64,000 nucleotides of DNA from Candidatus Palauibacter sp. (GCF_965261555.1 NZ_OZ253465.1:686667-750666); one strand, 5' to 3'. Positions 7,301 through 41,723 are shown, numbered from the stretch's first letter. The notes: generated by a model from the sequence alone, not told the origin. Made by a program: numbers and translations.

Positions 7301-7628
7301 GTATCTGCGCGGCCGCGGCGTTCCGTGCGAGCGCATCCTCAAGGTGCACGAGGGGCGTCCGAACCTCCTCGACCGCATCGTCTCGGGCGAGGTGCAACTC
7401 CTCCTGAACACCCCGCTCGGCAAGCACGCCCAGTACGACGACTACATGATCCGCCGCGCCGCGGTCTCCCGCCGCGTGCCCTACACGACGACGCTCTCCG
7501 CGGCATCCGCGGCCGCCGACGCGATCATCGCCCTTCGCCACCGCCGGCACACGGTCCACAGCCTCCAGGCGCGTGACGTCGCCGAAGCGGAAGAGGACCG
7601 GCTCACGAGGACCGCCGGCTCCGTCTGA
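4365..7628 (+). CDS. carB: carbamoyl-phosphate synthase large subunit
   Basis: 1087 aa; N-terminus [24 protein letters not shown], duplicated ATP-grasp halves, C-terminal MGS-like domain. Confidence 0.95.
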
Positions 7629-7743
7629 CGTTCCCGCGGGGAGGCCTCCCCGGGCCGACGCCATCCCACTTTCCGACGCGGGCCGCCCACACTTATGCTA
7701 CGGAGGCACTTTGCCTTTCGGTTCCCTTCGCCCCGGTGCGTCC

Positions 7744-25859: not shown

Positions 25860-25866
25860 ACTCAAC

Positions 25867-28194
25867 CTAGTTGGCGGGGGCGCCGAGACCCGCAAGGAAC
25901 CCGAAACGGTCCGCGCGCTGGTACGCACGCTCGGCGGCTTCCACGTCGCCCAGGTGCTCCTCCGTCATCCCCTGCAGGTAGTACGCGAGGTAGTACTGGG
26001 CCGGGATGCTCGACTGCGTGGACGGCTCGGGCCACTCCTCCCATCCCAGCACGTCTTCGACCTCGAACACCTCCCACAGCAGTTCCGCCGTGCGCACCCG
26101 GTCGTTCCACGTCGGCGAAATCGTGTTCGGCATGTACTCGCGCAGGTCCACGAGGGCGTCCGTCGCCTCGAGCGGTGCGTCCACGAGCTTGAAGGCGAGC
26201 CCGTGCCGGACGAGGTGCGGCTGCAGCCCCCACTTCCCGTACACGGGCGGGGCGGTCGCCGCGAAGTAGACCGGCCGGTCCCCCAGCGACTGCTGCATGA
26301 TATGGAACACGAGGATGTCGGGGTACAGAATCGAGTCCCCGCCGCGCACCGTCGCCGTCACCGCGCTCGAGACCCGGAACGCCGTGTCACGGGCGACCGC
26401 GATCCCCGGCGTGAGCCCGTCGATCTGCGCGTCGTTCAGGGCGATGATCGAGCGCGTGGGCGGGGTCGCTTCCGCGTCGGCATACGGGCTCGCCGCGTTG
26501 GCCGTGTCGAACGGCCGCTGGCACACGACGGTCGTCGGGGAATCCGCCGCGGACACCCCCGGCTCGCACGGCGTCGTCAGCGACCGCAACTGCTTCGGAT
26601 ACCAGTCCGTGCCGAGGTAGGAGTGGACGATGACGGTCACGTCGCGCCGAATCCCTTCCACCTCCTGCAGGTACCAGAGCGGGAAGGTGTCGTTGTCCCC
26701 GTTCGTGAACAGCACGGCGTACGGCTCGACCGACTGCAGGATGTTGTACGCCCAGTCGCGGGCCGCGCTGTCCTCCGTCCGGTCCGCGCGCGCGAAGTTG
26801 AACAGGAAGGGCACGAAGGCGACGGCGAGGATCGGCGCCGCCCTCCGGTGCCGCGCGCTGAACCCGGCCGGGCGGTCCTGCGGAAGACTCGTCCGGTCCG
26901 TGGGCACCGCGCTCCTCCGTCGATCCGGGGCGGACCAGTTGCCCCACAGCGCGACGAGCCCCAGCCCGGCGTAGATCCCCCACAGCTGGAAGCCGATGAT
27001 GTAGAAGTAGTCCCGCTCCCGGACCTCGTGCTGGAGGATGTTCGGCACCTCCTCCAGGTAGAGGGAGTAGCCGTGCTTGAAATTCAGGTAGTAGACGAGG
27101 AGCAGCGTGACCGTGAAGAAGAGCGTGCCCGCGTAGACGAAGGTCTTCCGGTCGCTCCGGAAGTGGGTCCACAGACCGAGGAGCGCGAGGAAGAGGAAGA
27201 TCATGCTGACGGCAACCCGGCCGCCCGGCGGCAGCGAGCGCGCCCACTGCCAGTCGAAGTACTGCCAGTAGTTCGCGTACTGGCGGTGAAGCGGAGCCTG
27301 GCGCTGCGTGACCGGCCCCGGCCCGTACTGGTCGCGGATGAGCGACAGCGCGAGCGGCTCGCACGCCACCGAGATCTTGCTGTTCCCGAACCGGTCGTCG
27401 ATCACGCTCGGCGTGACGGCCGAGAGGAGCGTCGGGCACTCCGGGTCCGCCTCGTCGATGATCGGGTTCTGCGCCGACCGGATGGGGACGAAGAGGAGCT
27501 GCACCGAGTAGCCGACCGCGAAGAGCGCAACCCCCAGCCCGAGGACGCGCGGGTTCAGCGCGGCCCGCCAGCGGTGGAGGAGGACGAAGAGCGCCAGCGC
27601 CGGGCCCGGCAGCAGCGACATCGTGTGGTTCGACCAGCCCAGGCCGAGCAGGAGCGCGATGAGCACGAGCAGCCGGTTTCCGCGGGCGGTGTCCGCCTCG
27701 TCCACCCACACCATCGTCAGGTAGCTCACGAGCGAGACGATGAAGAGGGAGAGCGTGTAGACCTTCTCGTTCAGATTCGACTGGGTCCAGACGGTGAAGG
27801 CGGTCGCCCCGATCCAGACCGCGACCATCGAGGCCACGAGGATCTCGTGCCGGTTCTCGCGGAAGTGCGCGACCATGCGCGCCACCGCGAGGAAGGAGAA
27901 GAAGCTCGCGCCGGCGGAGAGCGTCGCGCTGAGCACGTTGATGCGGAGCGCGACCGGGAGGCCGGTGAAGCCGAGCAGGAGGTCCCACACGCGGCCCACG
28001 AGGACGAAGAACGGGTTCCCCGGCGGGTGCGGGAGCCCGAGGATGTGGGCCGTGGTCACGTACTCCGACGTGTCCCAGAACCCGGTCGTCGGCGCGATCG
28101 TGAGCAGATAGAGCGACCACACGCCGAGGGCCGTCACAAGCCCCCACAGACGCAACGTCAGCGGACCGATCTTCTCGCGCTCGATACCGTTCAT
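25867..28194 (-). CDS. DUF2723-domain polytopic membrane protein, paralog B (tandem duplicate of 23565..25859)
   Basis: 775 aa, collinear with paralog A along its whole length (GFWDTSEYVTTAHILGLPHPPGNPFF). Confidence 0.75.
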   Translation of the reverse strand: MNGIEREKIGPLTLRLWGLVTALGVWSLYLLTIAPTTGFWDTSEYVTTAHILGLPHPPGNPFFVLVGRVWDLLLGFTGLPVALRINVLSATLSAGASFFSFLAVARMVAHFRENRHEILVASMVAVWIGATAFTVWTQSNLNEKVYTLSLFIVSLVSYLTMVWVDEADTARGNRLLVLIALLLGLGWSNHTMSLLPGPALALFVLLHRWRAALNPRVLGLGVALFAVGYSVQLLFVPIRSAQNPIIDEADPECPTLLSAVTPSVIDDRFGNSKISVACEPLALSLIRDQYGPGPVTQRQAPLHRQYANYWQYFDWQWARSLPPGGRVAVSMIFLFLALLGLWTHFRSDRKTFVYAGTLFFTVTLLLVYYLNFKHGYSLYLEEVPNILQHEVRERDYFYIIGFQLWGIYAGLGLVALWGNWSAPDRRRSAVPTDRTSLPQDRPAGFSARHRRAAPILAVAFVPFLFNFARADRTEDSAARDWAYNILQSVEPYAVLFTNGDNDTFPLWYLQEVEGIRRDVTVIVHSYLGTDWYPKQLRSLTTPCEPGVSAADSPTTVVCQRPFDTANAASPYADAEATPPTRSIIALNDAQIDGLTPGIAVARDTAFRVSSAVTATVRGGDSILYPDILVFHIMQQSLGDRPVYFAATAPPVYGKWGLQPHLVRHGLAFKLVDAPLEATDALVDLREYMPNTISPTWNDRVRTAELLWEVFEVEDVLGWEEWPEPSTQSSIPAQYYLAYYLQGMTEEHLGDVEAAERAYQRADRFGFLAGLGAPAN

Positions 28195-28354: not shown

Positions 28355-28475
28355 TCAGGGGTCGGATCGGTCGAACTGCCACAGTTGGACGTACTCGATT
28401 CCGAGTTCGTCGTTGCGCCGCCCTGGAGGTAGTCAGGGCCGATTTCGAAGACGGAGAACCTTCGCGCGCCCGTGT
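28355..28475 (-). pseudogene. frameshifted C-terminal remnant of an NHL-propeller lipoprotein paralog
   Basis: The reverse strand encodes ..RRFSVFEIGPDYLQG, then a frameshift, then RRNDELGIEYVQLWQFDRSDP* and a stop; this matches the conserved C-terminus (EIGEDYLLG..DELGVEYVQLWSL) of the array genes. Confidence 0.55.
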
Positions 28476-28479
28476 CCGT

Positions 28480-29691
28480 TCATCGGTCCTCCGAGCTCGT
28501 GGCGACCTCCGGTGGGAGAGGGTAGAGCGACACGTACTCGATGTCGAGTTCGTCCTGCTCGATGACGATCAAGTGTCGCTCACCGACGCGGGTCAGCCTG
28601 GCGCTCGCGGGGAGGGCGCCGCGCCCGCGGAGACGCCCGTCGGCGTCGAATGCGAGCCAGCGCTGTCCCTCCGGGTCCCCGGGGCGGCGCCACTCCTCCA
28701 CCCAGAAGCCGCCGTCCGGGGCCGCGCGAAGCCCGGAGACCGTACCGAACTGTTCGGCGACCGGCGCCGCGTCGAAGAACCTGAGCGCCTGCCGCCGCTG
28801 CTCCTCGTTGGTCGCGCTCCGGACCGCCTCCTCGCGTGCCGCCGCCACGTGCGCCTCGGTGACGGTGCGGTCGCGCCCCGCCCAGCGGACCAGCCGGGCC
28901 AGTCGGCCGTCGGGATCGAGGATGCGGACCTCGTACGCGTCGCCCATCGCCAGCGCGATGGCGTCGTCGAGGGCGGTCGCGCCGGCGAGCCCTTCGAAAT
29001 GCCGCGCGAGAAGGACCGTCTCTCCCCCGATGTCCACCGGGCCGAGACGCCAGCCCGGGACGTTGAACACCGTGTCCCGGAGCACTCCGGAGCCGGCGAA
29101 GCGAAGCCCGATGAGCGGCGACCAGGTGAAGTCTTCCGAGCGGGTCATCAGGAGGCTCGTGACGAGCACGCTCCCGTCGCCGAAGCGCCCTCCGGGCAGC
29201 GGGGCGGCCGGGAGCGGGCGCATCGGGCTGACCGAGAGGAAACCGCCACCGGCGGTCCAGTAGGCGAGCCTTCGATTCCTCCAGTCATGGATCACGAGGG
29301 AATCCGCCCCCGCGCTCCAGACGCGCTGCGGCAGGCCGATTTCCCGCGGTCCCTGCCCCAGGGATCCGAAGGAGCGGAGAATGCCGCCGTCCGGGGCGAA
29401 CACACGGATGAGCGGCTCGACCTGGCTCACGACCACGACGGAGCCGTCATCCAGTTCGAGGGCGTCGACAATTCGGAACATCTGGTATTCGGGCGGACCG
29501 TCTTGCATGCCCAGGCGCAAGTTGGGCCGAGGCGGCAGGTCGAACTCCGGGATGTCTCCGCGGTTCTCGACGATCTCGACGCCCGCGCTGTCGCGCACCA
29601 CGAAGTCCTGGGCGCGAGCACCGGTCGATGCGTCGCAGGCGAGGCACAGGACGGCGACAGCCAGGATCGTGATCCTCCGGAAGTTGTCCAT
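28480..29691 (-). CDS. NHL-type beta-propeller lipoprotein, array paralog 1
   Basis: Lipoprotein signal MDNFRRITILAVAVLCLAC; blades carrying GQGPREIG-like motifs; C-terminal DELDIEYVSLYPL. Confidence 0.7.
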   Translation of the reverse strand: MDNFRRITILAVAVLCLACDASTGARAQDFVVRDSAGVEIVENRGDIPEFDLPPRPNLRLGMQDGPPEYQMFRIVDALELDDGSVVVVSQVEPLIRVFAPDGGILRSFGSLGQGPREIGLPQRVWSAGADSLVIHDWRNRRLAYWTAGGGFLSVSPMRPLPAAPLPGGRFGDGSVLVTSLLMTRSEDFTWSPLIGLRFAGSGVLRDTVFNVPGWRLGPVDIGGETVLLARHFEGLAGATALDDAIALAMGDAYEVRILDPDGRLARLVRWAGRDRTVTEAHVAAAREEAVRSATNEEQRRQALRFFDAAPVAEQFGTVSGLRAAPDGGFWVEEWRRPGDPEGQRWLAFDADGRLRGRGALPASARLTRVGERHLIVIEQDELDIEYVSLYPLPPEVATSSEDR

Positions 29692-29709
29692 TGGTCTCTC
29701 CCCCTCCCG

Positions 29710-30837
29710 CTATGGGACCCGGGTGAAGCGGACGCGTGCGGCGCGCCAGACATCGAGAGAGTCGCGCGTCGTGCCGTAGAGGGTCGACTCGGTGACCCAG
29801 GGGGAGCCGAGGTGGCTGACGCGGCGCGGCCAGCGGTATCGCGCCACCAGCGTGCGCGCGCGGTAGACGTCGGCCTCGCGCATCTCCTGCCCATCGACCC
29901 CCGTCTTCTCCACCCACAGCCGGCCGCCGCGATCGAAGAAGAGTTCGGCGAGTACCGGCTTGCGGTCCGGGATCCCGTGCGGGTGGTCCCGCAGGTCGAA
30001 TCTCTCCTTCTCCTGGTCGATCCGGGCCTGCGCGCCCTGGCGTTCGTCCGGGCTCAACTCTGGTCCCTGCAGCGGCGCCTGGATCAGCGACGCGCTCCCA
30101 TCGGGATGGTGCAGCGTGACCGCATACGCGGAACTGACCGCCGTGGCCCACCAGCCGCCCGTCCCGTGCCCGTGGATCCACAGCGGGCCGAAGGGCTGGT
30201 AGAGGAAGAATGTGGCGGCCTGGTCCCCCACTCTGATGTCGACCGGGCTGAAGCCGGTGGCCTGCTCCTCTTCCGTCGCCATCGGGACCGTATCCACCGC
30301 CAGGCCCGGCCCCAAGTGGAAACGCGTGAACCGGGTGTCGCCGGCCGCCATCCCGAGATCGACGAGCCGGCCCTCCGCGTCGAAGGTGACCGGAGCGATC
30401 AGGTTGAAGGAGGCGTTCATGCTCCTGAGCCCGCGCGCGTACTCCGCGCCGTCGTCGTCGAGTCTGAACGCGCTGTAGCGGACGCTCTCCCGTACCCACA
30501 GGAGGCCTTCGGGCCCGAAGGTCATGCAGCAGGGATTCGTCAGTTCGCCGGGCCCCTCCCCCTGGCCGCCGAAGCGGAAGGCGAAGCGGCCGTCCGGGTC
30601 GAACACCCGCACCTCGTGCGTCTGATAGTCCGCCACGATCACCCGTCCGCGGTCGTCCTCCACGACGGAGCCGATGGTCGTGAACAGGTAGGGATCCTCC
30701 CCCTCGATCTCGCCGATCTCAAGGTCGATCATGCCCTCGAAGACCGGAATTTCGGGAGGCGGAGCCGGGGCACCGCTATCGACACACGCGGCGACTCCCC
30801 CCAACAGCGCGACCGCGACCGGGATTCGGGGCTTCAC
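29710..30837 (-). CDS. NHL-type beta-propeller lipoprotein, array paralog 2
   Basis: GTG start at 30837 overlaps the upstream stop (GTGA); signal VKPRIPVAVALLGGVAAC; GQGEGPGELTNP blade motif. Confidence 0.7.
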   Translation of the reverse strand: MKPRIPVAVALLGGVAACVDSGAPAPPPEIPVFEGMIDLEIGEIEGEDPYLFTTIGSVVEDDRGRVIVADYQTHEVRVFDPDGRFAFRFGGQGEGPGELTNPCCMTFGPEGLLWVRESVRYSAFRLDDDGAEYARGLRSMNASFNLIAPVTFDAEGRLVDLGMAAGDTRFTRFHLGPGLAVDTVPMATEEEQATGFSPVDIRVGDQAATFFLYQPFGPLWIHGHGTGGWWATAVSSAYAVTLHHPDGSASLIQAPLQGPELSPDERQGAQARIDQEKERFDLRDHPHGIPDRKPVLAELFFDRGGRLWVEKTGVDGQEMREADVYRARTLVARYRWPRRVSHLGSPWVTESTLYGTTRDSLDVWRAARVRFTRVP

Positions 30838-32045
30838 GAACCGGATCGGTCGAGGGTCCAGGACTCCACGTACTCGATGTCGAGTTCGTCGTCCCGCGTG
30901 CCGAGGATGTAGTCCTCGCCAATCTCCGTGACGTCGAAGCTCCCGGGCATCTCGACCAGGCCGAGGACGCGTCCCTCCGGGTCGAACACGGTCCACAGCC
31001 GGTGCTCTTCCCCGGGAAGCCGGTATTCCTCGACCCAAAGGTGCCCGAGACGGTCGACGAACACCCCGTTGAAGGCGGGGAACGCCTCGACGAGCGGCAT
31101 GCCCGCAACCGCGTCGAGCGCCTCGGGCCGGTCGGGGTTCTGGCGGACGACGTAGTCACGCAGGTCGGCCCGGGTTGGAGCGCGGGCCTCGTGGTCGCGA
31201 CGGACGATCCTCGCCAGCGACCCGTCCGCGCGATATCCGCGGATCTCATAGCGGTCGTTCGTGGTGATGACGATCAGGTCACCCCATGCGAACGCGAACG
31301 CGCGGCGAGCGAACGGGTAGGCCCGGGGAAACGTCCTCTCGGCGGTAGTGGCGACGTACAGTTCCGATCCGGGGTACGCGCCCAGGTCCCGGTGTACGCT
31401 CCCGTCCGCCTCCAGAATCCCGTATTCGAGGTCCGGGCGCGTGAGTTCCGACGTGCCCGGCGTGCCGCCCGAGTACGACGTGAGGGTCTGGGCCAGGATC
31501 CTCCCGTCCGGAAGCTGGCCGACCGCGCTCTCGTAGCGGCCCTGCAGCCTGAAGGCGCGACCGAACGTTCCGCGCGCGGAGAAGACGGACAGCCGGCGCT
31601 GGAACGGCTCCCTGGCCATCAGCGAATCGCCCGCCCACCGCTCCAGACTCGCCGGAGCCATGGCGCCGAATTCGCCCGGACCGTCGCCCTGGCCTCCCCA
31701 CGACTCGAGGTGGACGCCGTCGGAGTCGAAGACGCGGAGTTCGCCGGAACCCGCGTTGGCGACCACGATCCGCCCGTCGGAAAGCCGCATCGCGTCGTAG
31801 GCGCGGAAGAGTTCGTACGCCGGATCTCCCGCCGGGGACCCGATCGTCACGGCCGGTGCCTCCCCTACCCGCCATCCCAGTCGCGAATCGAGCGGAGGCC
31901 GCTCGTTCTCGACGATCGTGACCCCGGCGCTGTCCCTGACGACGCTTCTCGGGCTTCCGCGGCCATCCCCACCGCCGTCACCACCACCCGCACACGCCAA
32001 CCCCACCATACCCGCGAGGAGGGCCGTCAGAGTTCTCCCGTCCAT
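30834..32045 (-). CDS. NHL-type beta-propeller lipoprotein, array paralog 3
   Basis: Signal LLAGMVGLACAGG; GQGDGPGEFG motif; C-terminal DELDIEYVESWTL. Confidence 0.7.
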   Translation of the reverse strand: MDGRTLTALLAGMVGLACAGGGDGGGDGRGSPRSVVRDSAGVTIVENERPPLDSRLGWRVGEAPAVTIGSPAGDPAYELFRAYDAMRLSDGRIVVANAGSGELRVFDSDGVHLESWGGQGDGPGEFGAMAPASLERWAGDSLMAREPFQRRLSVFSARGTFGRAFRLQGRYESAVGQLPDGRILAQTLTSYSGGTPGTSELTRPDLEYGILEADGSVHRDLGAYPGSELYVATTAERTFPRAYPFARRAFAFAWGDLIVITTNDRYEIRGYRADGSLARIVRRDHEARAPTRADLRDYVVRQNPDRPEALDAVAGMPLVEAFPAFNGVFVDRLGHLWVEEYRLPGEEHRLWTVFDPEGRVLGLVEMPGSFDVTEIGEDYILGTRDDELDIEYVESWTLDRSGS

Positions 32046-32319
32046 GACTCTCCCCTATTGGCTCGGTTCCATCGTACCGAACCGGGGACACGATCAGCGG
32101 CGGGTTGGTTGTGCGGAGGTCGAGCTACCCCGCCAGGTGGACGCCCGGGACAGCGCCCCCCTTTGCCGGAACGCAAGAGCCCCGAGGACGAGAAGCGCCC
32201 TCGGGGCCCTTACCCCAGCGTCTTGCTGCACCCGAAGGCCTTTTGCAGTAGAGGACGACCTGAGGCATACACTTGTAGGATCGTCAACTCTCAGCCAAAC
32301 CGCAACCTGCGGAGTTGCT

Positions 32320-33033
32320 ATGCTACCCATCGAAGGCCTTCGAAGTGCGCTTTCAGCGGAGCGGCTGAGTGCCTACGCTCTCCCTGAGGACACCGACGAG
32401 ATCGACTGCGTGGCCAGGTATCTGTGGAATCTGGCGCGGTGCAGCGCCCTCCAACCGGCGCTTCATACCCTTGAAATTACCGTCCGGAACCGCCTTTTCG
32501 ACATCTCCAGAAAGATCATCGATGAGACCAAGCTCAGTCATGACAAGGTTCCGTGTTGGCTCGATGCTCGACCTTCGCTGCTTGCCGAACCCGAGCGTGA
32601 CGCCGTCGAGAAGGCGAAAGCAACGATCTTGGGACGGAGGAGTCCGCTGACCGAGGGCCGGCTTGTCTCGGTCCTGGGGTTTGGTTTCTGGGTGAGCCTG
32701 TGCAAACGGTCATATGAACAGGGGCGCACGGGTGGGCCGCGCCTCTGGCCCGAGTTGGCGACGAGGGGATTCCCGCATCCGCCCAACGCCAGGCGCACAC
32801 GAAGCCAGATCTTCCACGCCCTGAATCCACTCCGCGAACTACGCAACCGCGTTTCTCACCACGAAGCCGTTTGGGACCGGAAGCTCGACCGAAGCCATCG
32901 AGAGATCCTCGAGACCATAGCCTGGATCAACCCCGAATTGGCGGCGACCCTGGAGAAACACTCGCCGCTGCCGGCAGTACTCGACCGGGGCGTCGCCGGT
33001 TTCCGCGCTCAGGCCGAGGCGATCGTCAAGTGA
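32320..33033 (+). CDS. Abi-like protein (Abi_2 / AbiD-AbiF family, abortive-infection-type)
   Basis: In-frame ATG at 32320; LSAERLSAYA..YLWNLARCSAL..LEITVRNRL..LRELRNRVSHHEAVW matches the Abi_2 hallmark pattern; local GC is clearly lower than the flanks. Confidence 0.7.
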   Translation: MLPIEGLRSALSAERLSAYALPEDTDEIDCVARYLWNLARCSALQPALHTLEITVRNRLFDISRKIIDETKLSHDKVPCWLDARPSLLAEPERDAVEKAKATILGRRSPLTEGRLVSVLGFGFWVSLCKRSYEQGRTGGPRLWPELATRGFPHPPNARRTRSQIFHALNPLRELRNRVSHHEAVWDRKLDRSHREILETIAWINPELAATLEKHSPLPAVLDRGVAGFRAQAEAIVK

Positions 33034-33049
33034 CGCCGGCCGGCTTTGC

Positions 33050-34261
33050 CTACTGTCGAGGTCGCTCTGCCAGTTCGTACACGACGACGTTTTGTATGTC
33101 GAGGTCGTCCCTCAGCACGCCGAGGACGAGGGCTCCGGTCACGTCGAGGATCTGGAACCTCGGCGGCGTCTCGACCTGTCCCAGCCACTCTCCGTCCGGG
33201 GAAATGACGGTGTACGGGGACCCCTCTTCCGGGTAGGCGGGCCGGTAGGAGGGCAGCCATATGTTGCCGTCCGCGTCGGCGAAGGGGGTACTGAAGAACG
33301 GAATCGGCTGGCCGATCATGGCGCGATACCGGTCCATGTCTTCCTGAATGATCTCCTCGAGCCGGGCATCGGACACTCCGTAGTGCCTCCGGCCCAACGC
33401 TCGATTATAGGCCTCGCCGTGCTCCAGGAGTTCCTCGGCCAGCAGGTTGGGCTCGGGACGCCAGCGCACGATCTGGGTTACCCTGCCGTCCGGCAGGCGC
33501 CAGGCGATCTCGGGCCTGTCGGACCTCGTATGGACGAACCGCCCCGCCGCGACCGCGACCTCGCCGATGGGCCGGATGATCAGACGCGGCTGCTCCGACC
33601 GCTGTCGCGGGTAGTGGTCGTACGACGCCACCGTGTCGAGGGCGCCGGTTTCGATATCGAACAGGGTCATGTGCCCGGCGAGCCACTCCTCCTCTATGTC
33701 GATCCAGAGACGGTGGGGGTATCGGTCCATCATCATCAGCTCGCCGGATGAACCGATCCCCGCCACACCGAAGTGCGCTGCCCGCGGGAGGTTCACGATG
33801 CGCGCGACCGAATCGCCGACGAAGAGCGTGAGGCGGGACTGACGATCATCAGGCACAAGGACGCTGTCCTGGCCCAGGACGAACACCGCGTAGGGGGAGA
33901 TGACTTCGCCCGGTCCCTCTCCTGCCCTGGCGAGCACCTCGTGCGTCGCGCCGTCCGGACTCAGGACGATCACTTCGCTGTACCAGGCAACGACCGCGCT
34001 TCCATCCGGCAAGAGCCGGCCGGCGTCGACGAACTGAAACTCGTAGTCGCCGGGGTTGGCTCCGTGCCGGTACAGCGGCTCGGCCGCGAGGGTGAAGGGA
34101 GCCTCGACCTCCGGCACACCTGCGTACTCGACGATCCGCACGCCCGTGCTGTCCCGGATCTGGACCTGGATCTCGCCGGCGGGCCCGGCGTCGCCCCCGC
34201 AGGCAGCGAGGGCCGCCGCCAGAATCAGTACGCGGCTCGGCGTGAGTACGCGGCGCGTCAC
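33050..34261 (-). CDS. NHL-type beta-propeller lipoprotein, array paralog 4
   Basis: GTG at 34261 overlaps the upstream stop (GTGA); signal VLILAAALAACGG; GEGPGEV motif; C-terminal DLDIQNVVVYEL. Confidence 0.7.
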   Translation of the reverse strand: MTRRVLTPSRVLILAAALAACGGDAGPAGEIQVQIRDSTGVRIVEYAGVPEVEAPFTLAAEPLYRHGANPGDYEFQFVDAGRLLPDGSAVVAWYSEVIVLSPDGATHEVLARAGEGPGEVISPYAVFVLGQDSVLVPDDRQSRLTLFVGDSVARIVNLPRAAHFGVAGIGSSGELMMMDRYPHRLWIDIEEEWLAGHMTLFDIETGALDTVASYDHYPRQRSEQPRLIIRPIGEVAVAAGRFVHTRSDRPEIAWRLPDGRVTQIVRWRPEPNLLAEELLEHGEAYNRALGRRHYGVSDARLEEIIQEDMDRYRAMIGQPIPFFSTPFADADGNIWLPSYRPAYPEEGSPYTVISPDGEWLGQVETPPRFQILDVTGALVLGVLRDDLDIQNVVVYELAERPRQ

Positions 34262-35367
34262 CGGGCGAAGGGCAGGTTCGCGATGTCGTACCAGTCGAGG
34301 GCTCGGTCCGGAATCCCGTCGCCATCGTCCGGCCCCACCTGCCGATCGACGAGCACGACCAGAGTCGACCCCAGGAGGTCGAAGGCCCTGAGCCGGTCCC
34401 GGACCCGCACCGACCCGACGTATTCGGCGTCGTCGTACACGTCCAGCCAAGACCATTCGTGCTGGTCGCGGCCCGTGGCGACCCAGTAGCGGTTGGCGGC
34501 GTCGAAGAGATGCTCGCCCGCGGACAGATAGTAGTGCTTCGGAGTGGCGCTATACCTCTCCAACCCCTCGTCGATGGCGGGCGTGCGCGGGAGACCCTGC
34601 GATCTGTTGAGGGCCAGGAGTTCCTCTTCCCGCCGGGCCAGGTCCCGCTCGTTCGGGAGTTCCGGGACGTAAGTCGGTGCGCGGAGCACCGTGGCGTCGC
34701 CGGCGTCGCCGACGAAGACCAGATGCCCTTCGCAGGCCACGAACGCCCAGCCCCCGGCCGGGTCCGGGATACCATGGATGATCTGCCCGCACTCGATGCC
34801 CCACGGACCGGGCGGCGACTCTTCCTGCCCCACCGTCTCCCCGGAGGCGAGGTCCACCTCGTACCGGGTCATCAGCGATCCGGACATCCGGCCGAGCATC
34901 ACCATGTAGTCCAGCGACACGCCTGAAATCGCGGTGCCGAACGATGGGAAGGGCTGGAATACATCCGGGAGCAGCACATCCGACACGTAGACGCCCGATG
35001 GCTCGAAGACCGTGAAGCGGCCCAGGTCGGAATCCACCACGCCGACCGTTCCCGCCTCTCCGCGAGCGAGAGACGTGGGATCGCCGAACTCCCCGGGACC
35101 TTCGCCCTCGCGCCCGAAGACTCCCACGACGCCGCCTTCACCCGCCACGCAGCGGACCTGCCCTTCGTAGGAGTCGATGACGCAGGCGGTTCGCTCGTCT
35201 GCGAGCAGCGCGACTTCCTCGCTCTCGCTCAGGGGCACGGCGGCCGTGCCGATCAACTCGGGCGTGAAGACGGCCTCGTCTGTGGCTTCACCCGAACCGC
35301 ACGCCACGGCGATGACCAGGAGTGGAAGGCACGCGCCCGCGCGGCCGCGCGGAACGCGGATGGTCAT
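34258..35367 (-). CDS. NHL-type beta-propeller lipoprotein, array paralog 5 (more divergent)
   Basis: ATG (Met75 of the track ORF) overlaps the upstream stop (ATGA); signal LPLLVIAVACGSG; REGEGPGEFG motif. Confidence 0.65.
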   Translation of the reverse strand: MTIRVPRGRAGACLPLLVIAVACGSGEATDEAVFTPELIGTAAVPLSESEEVALLADERTACVIDSYEGQVRCVAGEGGVVGVFGREGEGPGEFGDPTSLARGEAGTVGVVDSDLGRFTVFEPSGVYVSDVLLPDVFQPFPSFGTAISGVSLDYMVMLGRMSGSLMTRYEVDLASGETVGQEESPPGPWGIECGQIIHGIPDPAGGWAFVACEGHLVFVGDAGDATVLRAPTYVPELPNERDLARREEELLALNRSQGLPRTPAIDEGLERYSATPKHYYLSAGEHLFDAANRYWVATGRDQHEWSWLDVYDDAEYVGSVRVRDRLRAFDLLGSTLVVLVDRQVGPDDGDGIPDRALDWYDIANLPFAR

Positions 35368-36812
35368 GACTTCTCCAGGGAATAGAGGCGGACGTATTCG
35401 ACGCCCCGGCTGTCGCTCCATACGCCGAGCAGGTAGTCGTCGCCGATCTCGAGGCCGGGGGCCATGCTCGCGATGAACCCCCGGTTCAACCCTGCCGGGA
35501 CGGAGACGCTGCCCAGCCAGGTGCCGTCCGCGGCGAAGACCTCGAACGGCGCCACTTCGATCCCCGCGCCGAAGAACGGCTCCACCCACAGACTCCCCGT
35601 CTCATCCAGGCGGATGGACCGCAGCACGGGGAGCGTCGGAGCCCTCGGATCGTCGCGGCGACGACGCCCCATTCCCTCCGCCTGCTCGCGCGAGACGCCG
35701 CCGTACATGACGTTCGTCTCAATGTACTCCTCGATCTCCGCGTCCACGTGGGCGTCCGTGACGGGGACCGGGGCGATGTCGCGACTGAGGATCCGCCTCG
35801 TCCCGCCGTCCTCGAGGGAGATCGACCGTATGTGGAACGCCTCCGTATCGACTGCCGCGAGCGTCCCGGGAGTGACAGCGAACCGCGGCCCTTTCCCGAA
35901 GTCGTAGCCGATGTAGGCGACGTTCTCGCCGTACCGCGCGATCACCTGCTCCGCGCCGGGGAAGTCCGAGACCGCCCGGATCGCGCCGTCGGCCAGGTCG
36001 AAGGTCGCGACTCTGACGGCGGGCCATCGCACGACCCCTCCCTCCGGCATCTCGGTATTGTCCGTGAAGGCCATGACGAGATCGCGACCCGAGACGCCGA
36101 GCGCGCGCTGCGGCATGGATCCGCTCCAAGGCGATTCGACGGGGAGCGTGCGGACGAGTTCGCCCGCCGCGTCGAAGATCTGCACGCGCCCGAGCGCGAG
36201 GTCGTACGTGACGAGCGAGTCGCCGGCGAGCACGCCGAGGAAGGAGAGGAACCGGTGTTCGCCGGGCCCTTCGCCTTCTCCGGCCGCGCGCCACACGAAG
36301 GTTCCCGCGGCATCGTAGCGGCGGAGTTCGCCGGAGCCCCCGTCCCCGAGAACGATGTCGCCGGAGCCGAGGCGGACCGCGCCGACCACGCCGTCGAGTT
36401 CGTAGTCGGGATCTCCGGTCGCGGTCCCGATCTCGAGCAGCGGCGGCTCGCCCACGGTCCAGCCCTCGCCCGGGCCCCACGCCGGCTCGACGGCCGTGGC
36501 GATGGCCACGCCGGCCGAGTCCGAGTGCAGCGTGCCCGCCGGCGCCCCCGCCGAATCGCAGGCTTGCACGGCGAGCACGACCGAGAGTGGAACGAAAGCG
36601 CCCGCGCGCCATGGGGTCGGCCGGCCCGCGCTCCACCGACGGCGAGTCAGGAGGCGGGCTCCCGCGACAACGACCAGAGCTGGACGTATTCGACACCCAA
36701 CTCGTCGGATACCCATCCCAGCAGGTAGTCCTCGCCGATCTCGAAGATGCGGAGGCCGGCCGGGGTCTCGACCAGGCCCTGGACCCGTCCCTCCGCGTCG
36801 AAGACGGTCCAC
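35364..36812 (-). CDS. NHL-type beta-propeller lipoprotein, array paralog 6 (start uncertain)
   Basis: GEGEGPGEH motif and C-terminal RGVEYVRLYSLEKS; lipobox ..LSVVLAVQAC near residue 85 of the track ORF, so the true start probably lies within about 36650-36720; the track start overlaps paralog 7 by 166 nt. Confidence 0.6.
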   Translation of the reverse strand: MDRLRRGGTGPGPGRDPGRPPHLRDRRGLPAGMGIRRVGCRIRPALVVVAGARLLTRRRWSAGRPTPWRAGAFVPLSVVLAVQACDSAGAPAGTLHSDSAGVAIATAVEPAWGPGEGWTVGEPPLLEIGTATGDPDYELDGVVGAVRLGSGDIVLGDGGSGELRRYDAAGTFVWRAAGEGEGPGEHRFLSFLGVLAGDSLVTYDLALGRVQIFDAAGELVRTLPVESPWSGSMPQRALGVSGRDLVMAFTDNTEMPEGGVVRWPAVRVATFDLADGAIRAVSDFPGAEQVIARYGENVAYIGYDFGKGPRFAVTPGTLAAVDTEAFHIRSISLEDGGTRRILSRDIAPVPVTDAHVDAEIEEYIETNVMYGGVSREQAEGMGRRRRDDPRAPTLPVLRSIRLDETGSLWVEPFFGAGIEVAPFEVFAADGTWLGSVSVPAGLNRGFIASMAPGLEIGDDYLLGVWSDSRGVEYVRLYSLEKS

Positions 36813-37984
36813 ACGGCGGCTTCGTACGCCCGCACCCAGAGATAGCCGGCACGGTCCGACAGAACCTCCTCGAAGGCGGGATACGACTCCACCAGCGGCA
36901 TGTCCCGCACGGCATCGAGGCTGCTGCGTCGGTCCTCGTCGGGGAGATCCGCGTAGCGCTGGGCGTAGTACTCGTCCAGATCGGCCTGCGTGGGGCGCTC
37001 CAGGTCACCGTCGCAGCGTACCACCCTGACCAGCGACCCATCGGAGGCGAAGGCCTTGATCTCGTAGCTGTCCTGCACGCCGATCGCGGCGAGTTCTTCC
37101 CACACGGCCCCCGTGGTGCCGCGACCGAAGGGGTGAGGCATGCCGCCCTGGAGGCTGCCGTCCGCCTCGAAGATGGCGTAGAACTCGCTTCCCGGAAATT
37201 CGCCGAGCGAAGCGAACCGCGCGCCGTGTTCGTCCAGGATTCCCCATTCCGCGCTGGAGCGGACGAGGCCCGAGGACCCTGTCATGTCCATGTTGAGGCC
37301 ACCTCCGCTACCGCGGGTGAAGATCTTCCCGTCCGGGAGCAGGTCCACGACGTTGAGCATGGTGGGGTCGAGGGATACGTCACGACCGTGGTTCCCCTCC
37401 GCATCGAACAACGACAGGCGGGTGCCCCAGGGATTCACGGCGGCGATCGAGTCGCCGGGCCACGAGGCCACGGCGCTCGGGCTGTAGCTGACGAACTCCC
37501 CCGGGCCCTCGCCCCGGCCTCCCGCCGTCGCGGAGTGGGAGCCGTCCGCGTTGAAGATTCTGAGTTCGTTGCTGCCCGAGTTGGCGATGACGATCCGGCC
37601 CTCCGCGAGCCGGGTGGCGTCGGTGACGCGGAACAACTGGTCGGCTCCGCCGCCGTCAACGGCGCCGATCGAAAGGGACGGCTCCGCGCCGAACGTCCAC
37701 GGCAGCCGCGTGTCCAGCGCGGGCGCCGGGTTCTCCACGATGCTGACGCCGGCGCTGTCACGGATCGCCGCCACGAGCCCCCGGTCGCCGTTCTCGACGG
37801 TGCCCTCGCACCCCACGGCGGGAAGGGCCAGCGCGAGGATGCCGGTTGCGAGGCACCCCGTGGTGGCCGGCCGGGGCGGTGAGATCGGACCCGGCGCGCT
37901 CGCAGGCCGAGAGAGGAGTGGCCAGGGCCCCGGGACCCGGGAGCCGCGGATTCTCGGATGGCGGCGACGCCTATGGTCTCGCAT
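36647..37984 (-). CDS. NHL-type beta-propeller lipoprotein, array paralog 7 (start uncertain)
   Basis: Lipobox GILALALPAVGC; GRGEGPGEF motif; C-terminal DELGVEYVQLWSLSREPAS; about 40 aa of N-terminal extension in the track ORF is probably not translated. Confidence 0.6.
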   Translation of the reverse strand: MRDHRRRRHPRIRGSRVPGPWPLLSRPASAPGPISPPRPATTGCLATGILALALPAVGCEGTVENGDRGLVAAIRDSAGVSIVENPAPALDTRLPWTFGAEPSLSIGAVDGGGADQLFRVTDATRLAEGRIVIANSGSNELRIFNADGSHSATAGGRGEGPGEFVSYSPSAVASWPGDSIAAVNPWGTRLSLFDAEGNHGRDVSLDPTMLNVVDLLPDGKIFTRGSGGGLNMDMTGSSGLVRSSAEWGILDEHGARFASLGEFPGSEFYAIFEADGSLQGGMPHPFGRGTTGAVWEELAAIGVQDSYEIKAFASDGSLVRVVRCDGDLERPTQADLDEYYAQRYADLPDEDRRSSLDAVRDMPLVESYPAFEEVLSDRAGYLWVRAYEAAVWTVFDAEGRVQGLVETPAGLRIFEIGEDYLLGWVSDELGVEYVQLWSLSREPAS

Positions 37985-38001: not shown

Positions 38002-39861
38002 TCAGGGTTCTGAGTTCAAGACGCCCACTTGCCGCGGGATGTCAACGAGTGCGGAGCGCTCGAAGCGGACGCGGCCTTGGGCGTCGAGGACGAAGTTGGC
38101 TTGGATCGCGTACACGCCGAACGCGTCCGTCGCGTCGTCCTCAAGATCGTAGTAGACGGGATACGTGATCCCGCGCTCCTCAATGAACGCATCCATCTCC
38201 ACCCCCGCCGGATCCCGCCAGGCGATAGACAGCACCCGTGCGCCCAGGCGCTCCATCGTCTCCTGAAGACGCACCACGTCCGGGATCTTCTGGACGCACG
38301 GCGGACACCACCGGGCCCAGAAGATGACCACAGTGGGTTTTCCGGCGGTCAGGTCGGCCAGTGTGTGCCGGTTTCCGCCCGCATCGGTTACCTGAGCGTC
38401 GCCGGGGGTCCACTCCACGGCAGCGGACAGGACATTGGGCAACACCTGAACGGTCCCGGCGTCGAGCAGGTCGCGCCATTCGGGGCCGTCGGGGTCGTGA
38501 CCGACCAGCATGGCGAGCGAGTCGGCCTCTTCCGGGGACGTGATCGGGTCGGAGGCCAACGCCGCGTAGGCACGCGCAGCGCCCTCCACGTCGCCGGCAT
38601 TCAGCTTCAACTCGCCGAGGATCTCGAACAAATCCGGGCTCGCTGACCGGGTCGTCGCCTCCTCGACGATTCCCATGGCCGCGTCCGGGCTCGCGAATTC
38701 GTTGAGAAACCTGGCGTAGTCCTTCAACAGGGCACCGCGCTGGACGGCGACCGATTGAGCGTGCTCGTCGGCGGTTCGCCCCAGCGGCCGGACCGGGTCC
38801 GGCAACTCATAGCGCACCCTCGCGAGTTCCACGGCGCGTGAGCGACGCTCAGGGATCACGGCAATCATTCGGGGCAGCGCCAATCCCACCAACCCATAGG
38901 GGAACAAACGCTCGACCCATCGGTCCAGTGCGTTGAGGTCCCTCGCCGCGATGGCGAGCTCAAAGGCGAAAGCCTCAAACGGGCTCGTTGTCCCCTGGGC
39001 GTCCGGCCAATGACGCTCGAATTCGGCCAGCGCCAGCGCCGTATCTCCGTCGGTCTCCAATCGCGTCAAGGTCCTCCATCCGATGTCCATGGCCCAGGCG
39101 TCCGTCCCAGCCGTCTGTTCGGCGATAGACGTCCAGTGGGCACCACCCTCTTGGTGGAGCACGGCGGCGGCATAGCCGGAAAGCCCCTGGATCGCGGACA
39201 GCGAGAGTTCTTCGCTACGGTCCTTGTAGTGTTCGTGCAGCTCGGCGAAATGCGCCTGGTGCCACGCGAAGAGGCTGTCGCCTGTGGTCGATCCCAGAGC
39301 CGATCTCTCGAAAGAGCGAAGCTCACTCCAGCCGTCGAGCGAGTCCGGATACAACTCCATTGCACGGCGAAGCGCCTCCAGCGATGTGTGCACGTTCCGA
39401 TCCTCGAACTCGTCGGCCCGGCGCCTGAACGCGTGGTAGAGTGGCCTGTCGTCCGGTGCGTGCACGAGGAGATCGAAGAGCCGACCGCTGTTCGCGTCGA
39501 GCCGCTCGCCCGTCGCGTCCTCCACAACGAAGGCGGCGTAAACCGCGGCTTCCGGCAGGGTGAACCGCGTAGAAAAAGTGCCGCCGGATCCTCGGTTCAT
39601 GGTGGGGATCGTGAGCAGCCTCTCCTCGAGCCGAACCCGCCAGGACTTGTCATCGGCGGTTCCATACGTGCCACGCAGCACAAGTTCGGGTGCGTCGGCA
39701 AGCGTCCCGATCGGCGTATACGTGACCGTAATCTCGTCGCCCGCCATCGGGCGTTCGGGGGCGAAACGAAGCCCGGTCTCCCCTGGTGCCGTCTCCCGTG
39801 CGCAGGATAGCGCAGTTCCCACCGCGAGGGAGAGCGCAATCGCTCTGGACATTCTGATCAT
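38002..39861 (-). CDS. TlpA-like thiol-disulfide oxidoreductase lipoprotein with a long helical (TPR-like) N-terminal domain
   Basis: Signal MIRMSRAIALSLAVGTALSC; C-terminal thioredoxin fold with VVIFWARWCPPCVQ (CxxC). Confidence 0.75.
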   Translation of the reverse strand: MIRMSRAIALSLAVGTALSCARETAPGETGLRFAPERPMAGDEITVTYTPIGTLADAPELVLRGTYGTADDKSWRVRLEERLLTIPTMNRGSGGTFSTRFTLPEAAVYAAFVVEDATGERLDANSGRLFDLLVHAPDDRPLYHAFRRRADEFEDRNVHTSLEALRRAMELYPDSLDGWSELRSFERSALGSTTGDSLFAWHQAHFAELHEHYKDRSEELSLSAIQGLSGYAAAVLHQEGGAHWTSIAEQTAGTDAWAMDIGWRTLTRLETDGDTALALAEFERHWPDAQGTTSPFEAFAFELAIAARDLNALDRWVERLFPYGLVGLALPRMIAVIPERRSRAVELARVRYELPDPVRPLGRTADEHAQSVAVQRGALLKDYARFLNEFASPDAAMGIVEEATTRSASPDLFEILGELKLNAGDVEGAARAYAALASDPITSPEEADSLAMLVGHDPDGPEWRDLLDAGTVQVLPNVLSAAVEWTPGDAQVTDAGGNRHTLADLTAGKPTVVIFWARWCPPCVQKIPDVVRLQETMERLGARVLSIAWRDPAGVEMDAFIEERGITYPVYYDLEDDATDAFGVYAIQANFVLDAQGRVRFERSALVDIPRQVGVLNSEP

Positions 39862-39876
39862 TGGGTTTTCCGCGGC

Positions 39877-41652
39877 TCAGCCGGGATTCCGTGGTACGGT
39901 GTCCGTCGCCGGGGGACTCAGCAATTCGAGGAGGAAGTCGACGGCCTCTTCGGATTCGGTGCGGCCGAGCCAGTAGATGCCGCGCTCCCGCACTTCCTGA
40001 TCCGGTTCGTCGCGGATCAGTTCCATCAGTACCCTCGGAACCGTGGGGTCGGATCCGGCCCGCTGATAAATCGCGTAGATGGCCTGCCGCTTCAGGAAGG
40101 CCTCGGACAGCTCTCCGTACAGGTCGGCGAGATACGCCACCGTCAGCGTCGGGTGGGCCGCCCACGCGCTGAAGGCCGCGCCGCGCACGTCGCTGGCCAC
40201 CTCCGTGTCGTACGCGACCAGGCGCGCCCATTCGGCGGTCTGCATGTCCTCCTTCTGCCTCACCTTGCGCGCCAGCGCGCTGAGCAGAGACACCTTGTGA
40301 TCGTCCGAATCGAGCTGCTCGTAGAGTCGAACGAACACTCCGCCTTCCACGTGATCGAGGTCGCGCAGCGCATTGATCGCCTGGTAACGAATGCGGCCCG
40401 ACTTCGAGCGGTTGGCGAACGCGGCGACGAGAGCGTTCTGGATCGCGGTCGGCGCCGACGCGTCCACGGCATACCGGCTGCTGCGGAGCCCGCTGATCGC
40501 GTCGCTCTGCTCGGCGTCGTCATCCGAATCCCGGAGGGTTGCCGCGAGCACCCGGAACGCGGCCCGGGAGTTGAAACGCCACATTTCCTGAAGAGCGCTT
40601 CTGCGAACCGACTGTTCCGGATGGTTGGCGATGATGCCCAGGAGGACTCGCTCGGCTTCCTCGGTTTCCTCCCTCGCGATGAGCTCAACCGCCTCATCGT
40701 GAAGCCGCATCGAGCACTCATCCTCGCGGGCCAGGACATCGCGAAGCACCTGCACCCGGTTGACGTCATCGAAGCGCATCACGGCCTCGAGCGCCGCCAG
40801 CTGCACCGACACGTCTTCACACGCTTCCTGTTCCTGTGACCTGGCGCGCAGGGCCTCTTGGAGTTCCACCCGCTGCCAATGGAGGTTCGAAGCCTCGCGC
40901 ACGTAATCCGCAACCTGGCGCTCGTAGTCGGCCACGGGATCCGCCTGATCCGCCAACCGCCGGACGTAGTCGGCCACGCCCTGTACGTCCGGCTCGCCCT
41001 GTACGTCGGCCAGCAGTTCTGCGGCCACCGAGTCCGGCAGATCCGGCAGATCCGGCAGATCTGTCAGGTCGGCCGTCGACACGGGAAGCGAGAGGATGCG
41101 CCCCCCCACCTCCATGGGCATCACGCGAAAGCCCGGTATCGGGGCGGCAACGTCGAGCGTCTCCTCGGCCTCGCGCAACAGCTGCTCCGCATCGCCGGCG
41201 TCGCCGCTCGACGCGAGCTGGCTTTTGATCTCGAAGTCCAGGGCCCGCGCGTCGTGGTACAGCCGTCCGGCGGTCCTGCCCATGTTCGCCGGTCGCGCTT
41301 CGTCAAACCCGACCATCAGTATTTCCAGCAGCAAACGCGCTTCGGCCAGGTCGCCGAGGCGATAGCGGGCGAACGCTTCCCAGTAGTAGGAGTCGGGCTC
41401 GAACCGGGGTGTAGTGAGCGCGGACTCGGTTCGGACCGCCTGGAAGAGCGCCACCGCGCGTTCGAACTCCTCCGCGTTGATGGCGCGACGCGCTTCGAGG
41501 AAGCGCGCCACCTCTTCCTGCTGGACCGTCTGCGCGGCCAGGCTCTCCGCCCCGAACGCCCGCAGCGCATCGGGCGCGGGCGCGGCGTTCACGATGGCGA
41601 GGCCGGCGAGCAGCAGCCCGGTCCGGGTCAAGTGTCTCACGCGGTCACTCAT
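39877..41652 (-). CDS. HEAT/ARM-repeat protein with signal peptide
   Basis: Preferred start is Met292 of the track ORF (ATG 41652; alternative 41718), followed by a signal peptide (LLLAGLAIVNAAPA); the C-terminal half carries HEAT_2/PBS-lyase-like repeats (VRRSALQEM.., IRYQAINALRDL.., VRERGIYWLGR); the low-complexity 5' extension is discounted. Confidence 0.6.
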   Translation of the reverse strand: MSDRVRHLTRTGLLLAGLAIVNAAPAPDALRAFGAESLAAQTVQQEEVARFLEARRAINAEEFERAVALFQAVRTESALTTPRFEPDSYYWEAFARYRLGDLAEARLLLEILMVGFDEARPANMGRTAGRLYHDARALDFEIKSQLASSGDAGDAEQLLREAEETLDVAAPIPGFRVMPMEVGGRILSLPVSTADLTDLPDLPDLPDSVAAELLADVQGEPDVQGVADYVRRLADQADPVADYERQVADYVREASNLHWQRVELQEALRARSQEQEACEDVSVQLAALEAVMRFDDVNRVQVLRDVLAREDECSMRLHDEAVELIAREETEEAERVLLGIIANHPEQSVRRSALQEMWRFNSRAAFRVLAATLRDSDDDAEQSDAISGLRSSRYAVDASAPTAIQNALVAAFANRSKSGRIRYQAINALRDLDHVEGGVFVRLYEQLDSDDHKVSLLSALARKVRQKEDMQTAEWARLVAYDTEVASDVRGAAFSAWAAHPTLTVAYLADLYGELSEAFLKRQAIYAIYQRAGSDPTVPRVLMELIRDEPDQEVRERGIYWLGRTESEEAVDFLLELLSPPATDTVPRNPG

Positions 41653-41723
41653 GGTATGCCTCCGTACTCTATGGTCGACTCTGTGGTCGCTCTCCGTCGT
41701 CCTGTATCGCGCCTGCATCCGGA

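Follow-up and report, generated by a model that had tools for sequence, protein, structure and literature searches.

Lipoprotein-type NHL propeller paralogs in a tandem array of Candidatus Palauibacter, and their turnover among related genomes

The stretch of DNA analysed here (the window) comprises 64,000 nucleotides (nt) of a Candidatus Palauibacter sp. genome (GCF_965261555.1, NZ_OZ253465.1:686667-750666), with a G+C content of ~69%. Seven intact, mutually homologous open reading frames (ORFs) on the minus strand (positions 28480 to 37984) encode predicted lipoproteins with NHL-type beta-propeller bodies. We refer to these tandem genes and their products as P1 to P7, numbered from low to high coordinates:

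28480-29691, minus strand: P1, 403 amino acids (aa) by ORF and translation, with a lipoprotein-type leader MDNFRRITILAVAVLCLAC, an NHL-type propeller and the tail DELDIEYVSLYPL
29710-30837, minus strand: P2, 375 aa, GTG start, P2/P8 subtype
30834-32045, minus strand: P3, 403 aa, the reference copy for the structure model
33050-34261, minus strand: P4, 403 aa, GTG start
34258-35367, minus strand: P5, 369 aa, with four invariant cysteines, the most diverged of the subtypes
35364-36650 (or to 36716), minus strand: P6, likeliest start CTG at 36650, with a 31-aa leader (M)TRRRWSAGRPTPWRAGAFVPLSVVLAVQAC
36647-37984, minus strand: P7, 445 aa counted from the ATG at 37984

The G+C content at third codon positions (GC3) is 0.85-0.89 in the array genes, the same as in neighbouring housekeeping genes, and because of this match we regard the ORFs as real genes. 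The best database matches of individual genes in the window are 91-95% identical, and the source names of the nearest homologs point to Candidatus Palauibacter, a member of the Gemmatimonadota. The first-pass annotation, made from the DNA sequence without database searches, had placed seven minus-strand paralogs here. Intact, homologous ORFs do occupy these positions, and they are separate genes rather than fragments of one mis-split ORF, a possibility that it had also raised.

Homology among the copies stands as first proposed, with the range of identity corrected from 30-50% to 24-44% for full-length pairs. P3 and P7 are the closest pair (44%), and P1 and P3 are 33% identical over their full length. 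In pairwise alignments, P2 and P5 match most other copies only locally. Comparison of P5 with a P3/P7 profile (hhalign) gave a probability of 97.9% (E = 3e-13, 267 columns). Based on this profile-profile comparison and on an eight-way alignment, which includes a member encoded elsewhere in the window (P8, see below), we conclude that all copies are homologous along their length. The only residues invariant across the eight copies are Gly, Pro, one Glu and one Trp, and no conserved metal or catalytic constellation was detected across these eight paralogs. Many charged residues are conserved within the P3/P7 subfamily. The invariant cysteines of the P5 subtype are C62, C73, C193 and C212; among mature homologs in general, 93 of 103 have no cysteine.

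Hallmarks of the clade are an N-terminal RDSAGVxIVEN hairpin, a helical insert and a DELxIEYVxLW tail. Two motifs emphasised in the first-pass annotation proved to be more restricted than it had them. The GxGxGPGE-type motif is present, and rather than recurring in each blade it occurs once per protein, in one canonical NHL blade. The DELxIEYVxLYxL tail is readily recognised in P1, P3, P6 and P7, less so in P4, and has degenerated in P2 and P5. Leaders were judged by a rule of the PROSITE PS51257 type, in which [LVI][ASTVI][GAS]C follows a hydrophobic stretch and a positively charged N-region. The LxxC lipobox reported for all seven copies has this strict form in P2-P6 and only a relaxed form in P1 (LCLAC) and P7 (PAVGC). 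Among 120 homologs, the strict rule is satisfied by 59 and the relaxed rule by 103. Judged by their leaders, the array proteins would be bacterial lipoproteins, i.e., predicted substrates of signal peptidase II (SPase II).

We modelled P3 with AlphaFold2 from a 51-sequence alignment (predicted local distance difference test, pLDDT, 87.4; predicted template modelling score, pTM, 0.85). The model is all-beta, with four-strand repeats and two short helices, and its best Foldseek matches in the PDB are the NHL domains of Thin, TRIM71 and Brat (E ~1e-11) and the exported protein BF0058 of Bacteroides fragilis (4raa). The AlphaFold2 model of P5 (pLDDT 80) has the same topology and the same top fold matches. 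Structure prediction and fold search on both a typical (P3) and the most divergent (P5) copy are thus in line with the earlier description of NHL-type beta-propellers carrying lipoprotein leaders. The propeller may have six blades, possibly seven. When searched against PDB sequences, the family profile matched the NHL domain of Thin in five stretches (E = 5e-33), as well as those of TRIM71 (1e-26) and TRIM2 (2e-25). Every TRIM-NHL blade was matched via a single region of the family profile, positions 87-164. Because the matches run through this region alone, we conclude that one blade is a canonical NHL repeat and that the others are degenerate.

Against the Pfam NHL model (PF01436, gathering score 20 bits), P2 (16.9 bits) and P3 (14.3 bits) fall below the gathering score, and P1, P4, P5, P6 and P7 give no match. 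P8 reaches 20.8 bits as a whole protein, with no single stretch passing. The gathering score of PF17170 (DUF5128, "6-bladed beta-propeller"), 22.9 bits, is exceeded by P2 (30.1) and P7 (24.6), with P3 below it (20.3) and no match in P1, P4, P5 or P6. The PF17170 matches cover just the 65-90 residues (66 in P2) of the canonical NHL blade region, at profile positions 24-142 of 321, and a minority of the database homologs have a precomputed match to this family. Matches to SGL are insignificant (E 0.05-0.08), and the NCBIfam models gave only sub-threshold similarity, to ScyF.

For each paralog of the window, a separate ortholog with 73-91% identity was identified in other Palauibacter species. 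For example, the orthologs of P1 in related loci L002-L008 are 73-82% identical, and those of P4 in L001 and L002 ~80%. Because every paralog has its own ortholog there, we infer that the duplications predate the Palauibacter species. With paralogs at most 44% identical to one another, the expansion is old, as the first-pass annotation had supposed. The synteny comparison that it recommended revealed copy numbers from 3 to 13 or more at syntenic arrays, which are bounded by genes for an extracytoplasmic function (ECF) sigma factor, an anti-sigma factor and a HEAT-repeat protein on one side and by two TMEM260-like genes on the other. In detail, there are 3 copies in L001, 7 in the window and in L005, 9 or more in L006, 10 in L008, 11-12 in L002 and L004, and 13 or more in L003. 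The order of subtypes also varies between genomes. In L001, which has no P5, the P4 ortholog (7349-8599) consists of a P5-type leader (MRHACRGRL...RAGACLPLLAVAAACGS) fused to a P4-type mature part, and its sequence suggests a deletion caused by recombination of adjacent paralogs. The P5 orthogroup is 60-93% identical across Longimicrobiales, compared with ~43% for other subtypes in the same genomes. With its four invariant cysteines, P5 may have a distinct, more constrained role.

The ratio of nonsynonymous to synonymous substitution (dN/dS) was estimated between the window and L001 by the Nei-Gojobori method, which is rough here given strongly biased codon usage. P2, P3 and P4 have dN/dS values of 0.20-0.44 (dS 0.25-0.35), and the flanking ECF and TMEM260-like genes have values of 0.04-0.27 (dS 0.10-0.17). 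Selection on the copies is purifying, though relaxed. The dS of the array is two to three times that of its flanks, so that divergence is greater even at synonymous sites, which suggests older alleles or recombination with other lineages.

A scan with one genome per species returned at least 423 relatives, and all of the 79 best loci are from Gemmatimonadota. Tandem clusters are common in Longimicrobiales. Within the fetched loci, single genomes have at least 16-17 copies. Many homologs come from metagenome-assembled genomes of sponge- or coral-derived Gemmatimonadota. Based on these sequences, the clade looks restricted to this phylum. The 113,017 matches of an exhaustive profile search were rejected as a measure of family size, as they are dominated by giant generic NHL-repeat proteins.

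Three of the junctions in the array are 4-nt start/stop overlaps, exactly as first noted: GTGA at 30834-30837 (start of P2, stop of P3), GTGA at 34258-34261 (start of P4, stop of P5) and ATGA at 35364-35367 (start of P5, stop of P6). The start position of P2 and its 4-nt overlap are kept in L001 and L002. However, a gap of 1,004 nt (32046-33049) separates the stop of P4 (33050) from the start of P3 (32045), and it contains two features:

32320-33033, plus strand: inserted gene, an Abi-like, single-gene anti-phage defence candidate (PD-T4-5), 237 aa, likeliest start 32320
32072-32095, minus strand: conserved intergenic 24-mer upstream of P3, with one match in the window versus 0 expected

The inserted gene matches the PADLOC model PD-T4-5 (E = 5e-15) and, weakly, Abi_2 (E = 0.036). 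Its whole ORF (31918-33033) has a G+C content of 0.634 and a GC3 of 0.70, compared with ~0.69 and 0.85-0.89 in the flanks, and a search of the 81 related loci fetched found no homolog. It is convergent to P4 and divergent from P3. Because this opposite-strand gene interrupts the array, splitting P7-P4 from P3-P1, a single translationally coupled polycistron, as proposed in the first-pass annotation, is impossible for all seven genes. Judged by strand and overlaps, coupling fails for the array as a whole and is predicted only locally, at the three junctions, plus a CTGA at P7/P6 if P6 has a CTG start. At best there would be two units, (TlpA)-P7-P6-P5-P4, in which TlpA is the product of the gene upstream of P7, and P3-P2-P1. 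Scans for consensus promoters and terminators returned nothing above shuffled expectation, and an ad hoc scan for ECF-like motifs gave three scattered matches with no pattern.

A 17-nt core of the intergenic 24-mer occurs once each in L001 (8605-8621), L002 (6011-6027), L003 (6528-6544) and L004 (5939-5955), and the conserved segment sits just downstream of the P4-type gene, once per syntenic locus. The foreign genes beside it differ: the Abi-like gene in the window, and MarR and isochorismatase genes in L001. The spot upstream of P3 seems prone to insertions, and the conserved segment could represent a hot spot for insertion, or else part of a promoter.

The starts of P6 and P7, which the first-pass annotation could not fix, are largely settled by the leaders of their orthologs. 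Our ORF listing considered only ATG, GTG and TTG starts, and the sole such codon in frame upstream of the P6 signal sequence is the ATG at 36716, which would give a 70-nt overlap with P7. The P6 orthologs in L003 and L008 have 31-aa leaders (MDHGGRGCLLMRWVRARICLPLLAGFVLQAC) that align in frame, residue for residue, with the window. The counterpart of their start codon is a CTG (36650-36648) that overlaps the P7 stop as CTGA. Our best guess from this alignment is that P6 starts at CTG 36650, an unusual codon, which would give it a normal 31-aa leader and the array a fourth 4-nt junction. We also considered P6 as a frameshifted pseudogene, given an ATG at 36612 that is one frame off the lipobox. 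This was rejected, as the ortholog leaders align in frame and the apparent ATG is part of CCA-TGG (Pro-Trp). The P7 orthologs begin with MS(R/Q)PT.RGCLA where the window reads I-S-P-P-R-P-A-T-T-G-C-L-A, and their start codon corresponds to ATC in the window (37885). Translation of P7 would begin either at this ATC or at the ATG at 37984, which is 17 nt past the TlpA stop. In L006, the leader of the P6 ortholog (~5254-5373) reads ...SALQAPGLAG, compared with ...LQACDSAG in the others, so that the lipobox cysteine is replaced by proline and this copy may have lost its lipid anchor.

Searching the window by tblastn with all copies identified one further member and two remnants:

2931-4298, plus strand: P8, 455 aa, P2 subtype, without a lipobox and with a Tat-like leader ...LSRRAFTRLVGSFILL...
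28355-28479, minus strand: frameshifted 3' end left from one more copy, located between P1 and the TMEM260-like gene
62124-62339, plus strand: isolated remnant of a C-terminal blade, found with P8 (35% identity over 75 aa)

P8 is 31% identical to P2 over 389 aa and is thus the distant eighth member that had been indicated. It had been described as lacking a signal peptide, which is probably wrong: there is no lipobox, but the leader region (2931-3080, plus strand) carries a conserved twin-arginine-like LSRRxFxxL motif. In full, LSRR(A/T)F(T/G)(R/K)L(V/I)G precedes a hydrophobic stretch, and this is kept in orthologs (68-95%). More distant relatives of P8 have a signal anchor or a lipobox instead, and members of the P2/P8 subtype thus differ in their export or anchor signal (Tat-like, signal anchor or lipobox). 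P8 lies 3 nt downstream of a TonB_C-domain gene. Its upstream neighbours encode DinB-like, bPH, HD and TonB_C-domain proteins, and CarB is encoded downstream. The idea that P8 is a TolB analogue encoded in a Tol/TonB operon was rejected, as no ExbB/TolQ, ExbD/TolR or Pal gene was identified near P8, and there is only the one TonB_C protein. The decayed fragments reported at both ends of the family are real. The first reads 'FSVFEIGPDYLQG' in one frame and 'NDELGIEYVQLWQFDRSDP*' in another, and its tail resembles that of a terminal P3-like copy that is still present in L002 (...DELDIERVQLWPLDRSDP).

The array is flanked by an upstream block on the same strand (38002-43411) and by a pair of genes downstream:

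42809-43411, minus strand: ECF sigma factor
41724-42815, minus strand: putative anti-sigma factor
39877-41652, minus strand: secreted HEAT-repeat protein
38002-39861, minus strand: TlpA-like lipoprotein with TPR and redoxin domains
23565-28194, minus strand: two tandem TMEM260-like (DUF2723) GT-C glycosyltransferase genes (PF11028, E 1e-39 to 1e-40), the downstream bound of the array

The ECF, HEAT and TlpA-like genes were assigned by Pfam matches, and the anti-sigma factor by position alone, as it has no Pfam match. The block is thus present as first annotated, with the anti-sigma factor putative. The stop of the ECF sigma gene and the start of the putative anti-sigma gene overlap by 7 nt (ATGCTGA, 42809-42815), which fits the usual co-translation of sigma and anti-sigma factors. 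The ECF, anti-sigma and HEAT genes are kept upstream of the array in L001 and L005, and a TlpA-like gene is there only in L008. In L001-L004, its position is taken by an unrelated, conserved secreted protein of 337 aa (6240-7253 in L001, 1387-2400 in L002) with no Pfam match on record, our own scan having covered its first 60 residues. All syntenic Palauibacter loci, including L001, L002, L004, L005 and L008, have the TMEM260-like pair downstream of the array. The second of the two genes evolves much faster than the first (71-90% versus 85-98% ortholog identity, dN/dS 0.27 versus 0.08).

Association with neighbours was assessed by tblastn and by clustering ~950 neighbouring ORFs over 81 loci. 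Outside the syntenic Palauibacter locus, this clustering turned up no recurrent partner family. Only 8 of 74 non-syntenic loci have an ECF gene within 10 kb, which by our own rough estimate is about what chance would give in an ECF-rich phylum, and TMEM260-like genes were found at none of these loci. A general link of the family to ECF sigma, TlpA or TMEM260-like genes was therefore rejected, for want of recurrence outside the syntenic locus.

In combination, we read the array as a tandem birth-and-death family of lipid-anchored, non-enzymatic envelope binding modules, and give this anatomy and role, taken jointly, a probability of roughly 0.6. Our confidence in the anatomy is far higher than in the function. 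Each member pairs a lipoprotein-type leader with an NHL-type propeller body made of one canonical blade, degenerate others and a short helical insert. Between Palauibacter species, the ancient paralogs have been reshuffled: copies were duplicated, deleted and recombined with one another, and foreign genes were inserted. Expression would occur as at least two units, (TlpA)-P7-P6-P5-P4 and P3-P2-P1, the latter with its own upstream region. Processing by SPase II and lipidation would then place the propellers on an envelope membrane, either facing the periplasm or exposed at the surface, where they could act as non-enzymatic binders with diversified specificity for small ligands, polymers or partner proteins. 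The first-pass annotation knew of no described function for such an array, and this agrees with the sources, in which homologs are called "hypothetical protein" or "6-bladed beta-propeller" (the name that NCBI gives to some orthologs).

The propellers could instead be enzymes, for example lyases, lactonases or other hydrolases, whose substrates are in the envelope or outside the cell and differ from paralog to paralog. Enzymes with six-bladed NHL/SGL propellers include PAL, gluconolactonase and phytase, and the weak similarity to SGL and ScyF and the many charged residues conserved within the P3/P7 subfamily are consistent with this. However, no catalytic or metal-binding set is invariant across the paralogs, the SGL matches are far below threshold, and the top-ranking folds belong to NHL domains that bind without catalysis and to exported Bacteroides proteins that are uncharacterised. 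Because invariance is confined to Gly, Pro, one Glu and one Trp, we favour a scaffold with diversified binding surfaces over a shared active site, and consider enzymatic activity unlikely. Some points nevertheless count against our main reading. Among paralogs this divergent, missing invariant catalytic residues are compatible with enzymes specific to subfamilies, and P5, with its four invariant cysteines, may well differ from the rest; in addition, neither a CTG start for P6 nor an ATC or upstream ATG start for P7 is usual, and these starts could mean decay or an assembly error. Decay of the whole array, as non-functional duplicated DNA, would account for these starts, the two remnants and the L006 P6 ortholog without a lipobox cysteine. 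Yet all seven ORFs are intact, their codon-position G+C is that of the genome's other genes, dN/dS is 0.2-0.44, and each copy has conserved orthologs across species, and we consider decay very improbable.

Two further explanations draw on the flanking genes. The array could be the regulon, or the clients, of the upstream block, comprising envelope-stress effectors or substrates of a TlpA-like thiol reductase expressed from an ECF promoter. The common strand and close spacing (17 nt separate TlpA from the P7 ATG, and the junctions from there to P4 are 4-nt overlaps), the retention of ECF, anti-sigma and HEAT genes upstream of the Palauibacter array and the four invariant cysteines of P5 all fit such an arrangement. 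Set against them are the unrelated 337-aa protein in place of TlpA in L001-L004, the chance-level occurrence of ECF genes and the lack of any recurrent neighbouring family elsewhere, and the opposite-strand gene that separates P3-P1 from the block. The propellers were rejected as TlpA disulfide clients, since the mature proteins mostly have no cysteine. With no association beyond chance outside the syntenic locus, the earlier suggestion of envelope-stress clients of the TlpA/ECF block finds no support, and we regard a regulon of this kind as quite unlikely. The downstream pair raises the idea that the proteins are substrates of the adjacent TMEM260-like GT-C O-glycosyltransferases, so that the locus would encode glycosylated envelope lipoproteins, with the invariant D-S-A and D-S-[LIV] as sequons similar to the motif of Bacteroidota, D(S/T)(A/I/L/V/M/T). 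Among P3/P7-type homologs, DSA is present at residue 38 in 114 of 120 and DS[ILVM] at residue 140 in all 120, and each syntenic locus has the two TMEM260-like genes immediately after the array. However, these genes are absent from every non-syntenic locus, sequon-like triplets, which P5 lacks, are no more frequent than in shuffled sequence apart from a nominal excess in P4, and the conserved motifs lie in structural strands, so that the fold alone could keep them. Glycosylation by these enzymes therefore seems very improbable. For bacterial DUF2723, the literature that we found notes just distant bacterial homologs, without substrates (PMC10214176).

More speculatively, the arrays of marine and sponge- or coral-associated Gemmatimonadota could form a rapidly reshuffled repertoire of surface-exposed, lipid-anchored NHL propellers that recognise changing targets outside the cell, such as phages, the host matrix, and prey or particle polymers. 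Diversifying pressure could then explain why copies are gained, lost and recombined with one another and why divergence at the locus is raised. We consider this doubtful. In one version, the DS[A/L/I] motifs would be O-glycosylated by the adjacent TMEM260-like transferases and, if true, the propellers would be the first substrates for bacterial DUF2723 enzymes.

Gemmatimonadota are abundant in soil, the sea and sponges, are almost uncultured, and their envelope biology is little understood. The family described here is among the large lineage-specific expansions of this phylum, and standard annotation barely detects it, most copies having no Pfam match. NHL (PF01436) is among the repeat classes reported to be enriched in sponge microbiomes and treated as "eukaryotic-like proteins" (PMC9531527), and surveys of sponge symbionts count Pfam NHL matches at E < 1e-5 (PMC11706023). 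Matches of the array family to Pfam NHL have E values of 4e-4 to 0.04, or there is no match. Because these values fall outside the cutoff, Pfam-based NHL counts would miss the family, and a family definition would both improve genome annotation and correct such counts for sponge symbionts. Our literature search found no paper describing the family and none mentioning DUF5128, and the Palauibacterales ecogenomics paper does not mention a propeller, NHL or lipoprotein expansion. The old paralogs, with their clear orthologs, are a tractable set for studying how an envelope binding repertoire diversifies. The present evidence reveals no new mechanism and solves no open question. The fold is known, the junctions are of the ordinary operon style, and nothing is mechanistically surprising; this is a subfamily of a known, uncharacterised kind. 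It is also a real, well-delimited, phylum-specific tandem family with a history of copy gain and loss.

The closest described relatives, PF17170 (DUF5128) and the Bacteroides proteins BF0058 (4raa) and BVU_1028 (DUF4221, 3s9j), are likewise exported propellers of ~350-400 aa, which are uncharacterised and known from structural-genomics structures. P2 and P7 pass the PF17170 gathering score, whereas four of the seven copies have no match, and sequence identity to 4raa is ~13%. The array family further differs from these proteins in its Gemmatimonadota-restricted look and in having its own RDSAGVxIVEN hairpin, helical insert and DELxIEYVxLW tail. The TRIM-NHL proteins (Brat, TRIM71/LIN-41, TRIM2/3 and Thin) are non-enzymatic binding platforms, and each of their NHL blades matches the family profile. 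Their NHL domains are, however, cytoplasmic RNA- or protein-binding parts of multidomain E3 ligases, whereas the array proteins are stand-alone, predicted to be lipid-anchored, and have one NHL-motif blade. The nearest functional analogues, BtuG (BT1954/BT2095, surface B12-binding), BamB, BamH of Bacteroidota and TolB, are likewise lipid-anchored or periplasmic propeller binding platforms, and BT1954 and BT2095 are among our Foldseek matches (E ~1e-7). BtuG and BamB propellers are built of 7 or 8 blades. BamH contains a 6-bladed propeller domain to which no role has been assigned (bioRxiv 10.1101/2025.01.31.636011). No transporter, beta-barrel assembly machinery (BAM) or Tol genes were detected near the family loci that we examined. 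BtuG, BamB, BamH and TolB are single-copy parts of defined machines, whereas the array family is present as up to 13 or more variable tandem copies.

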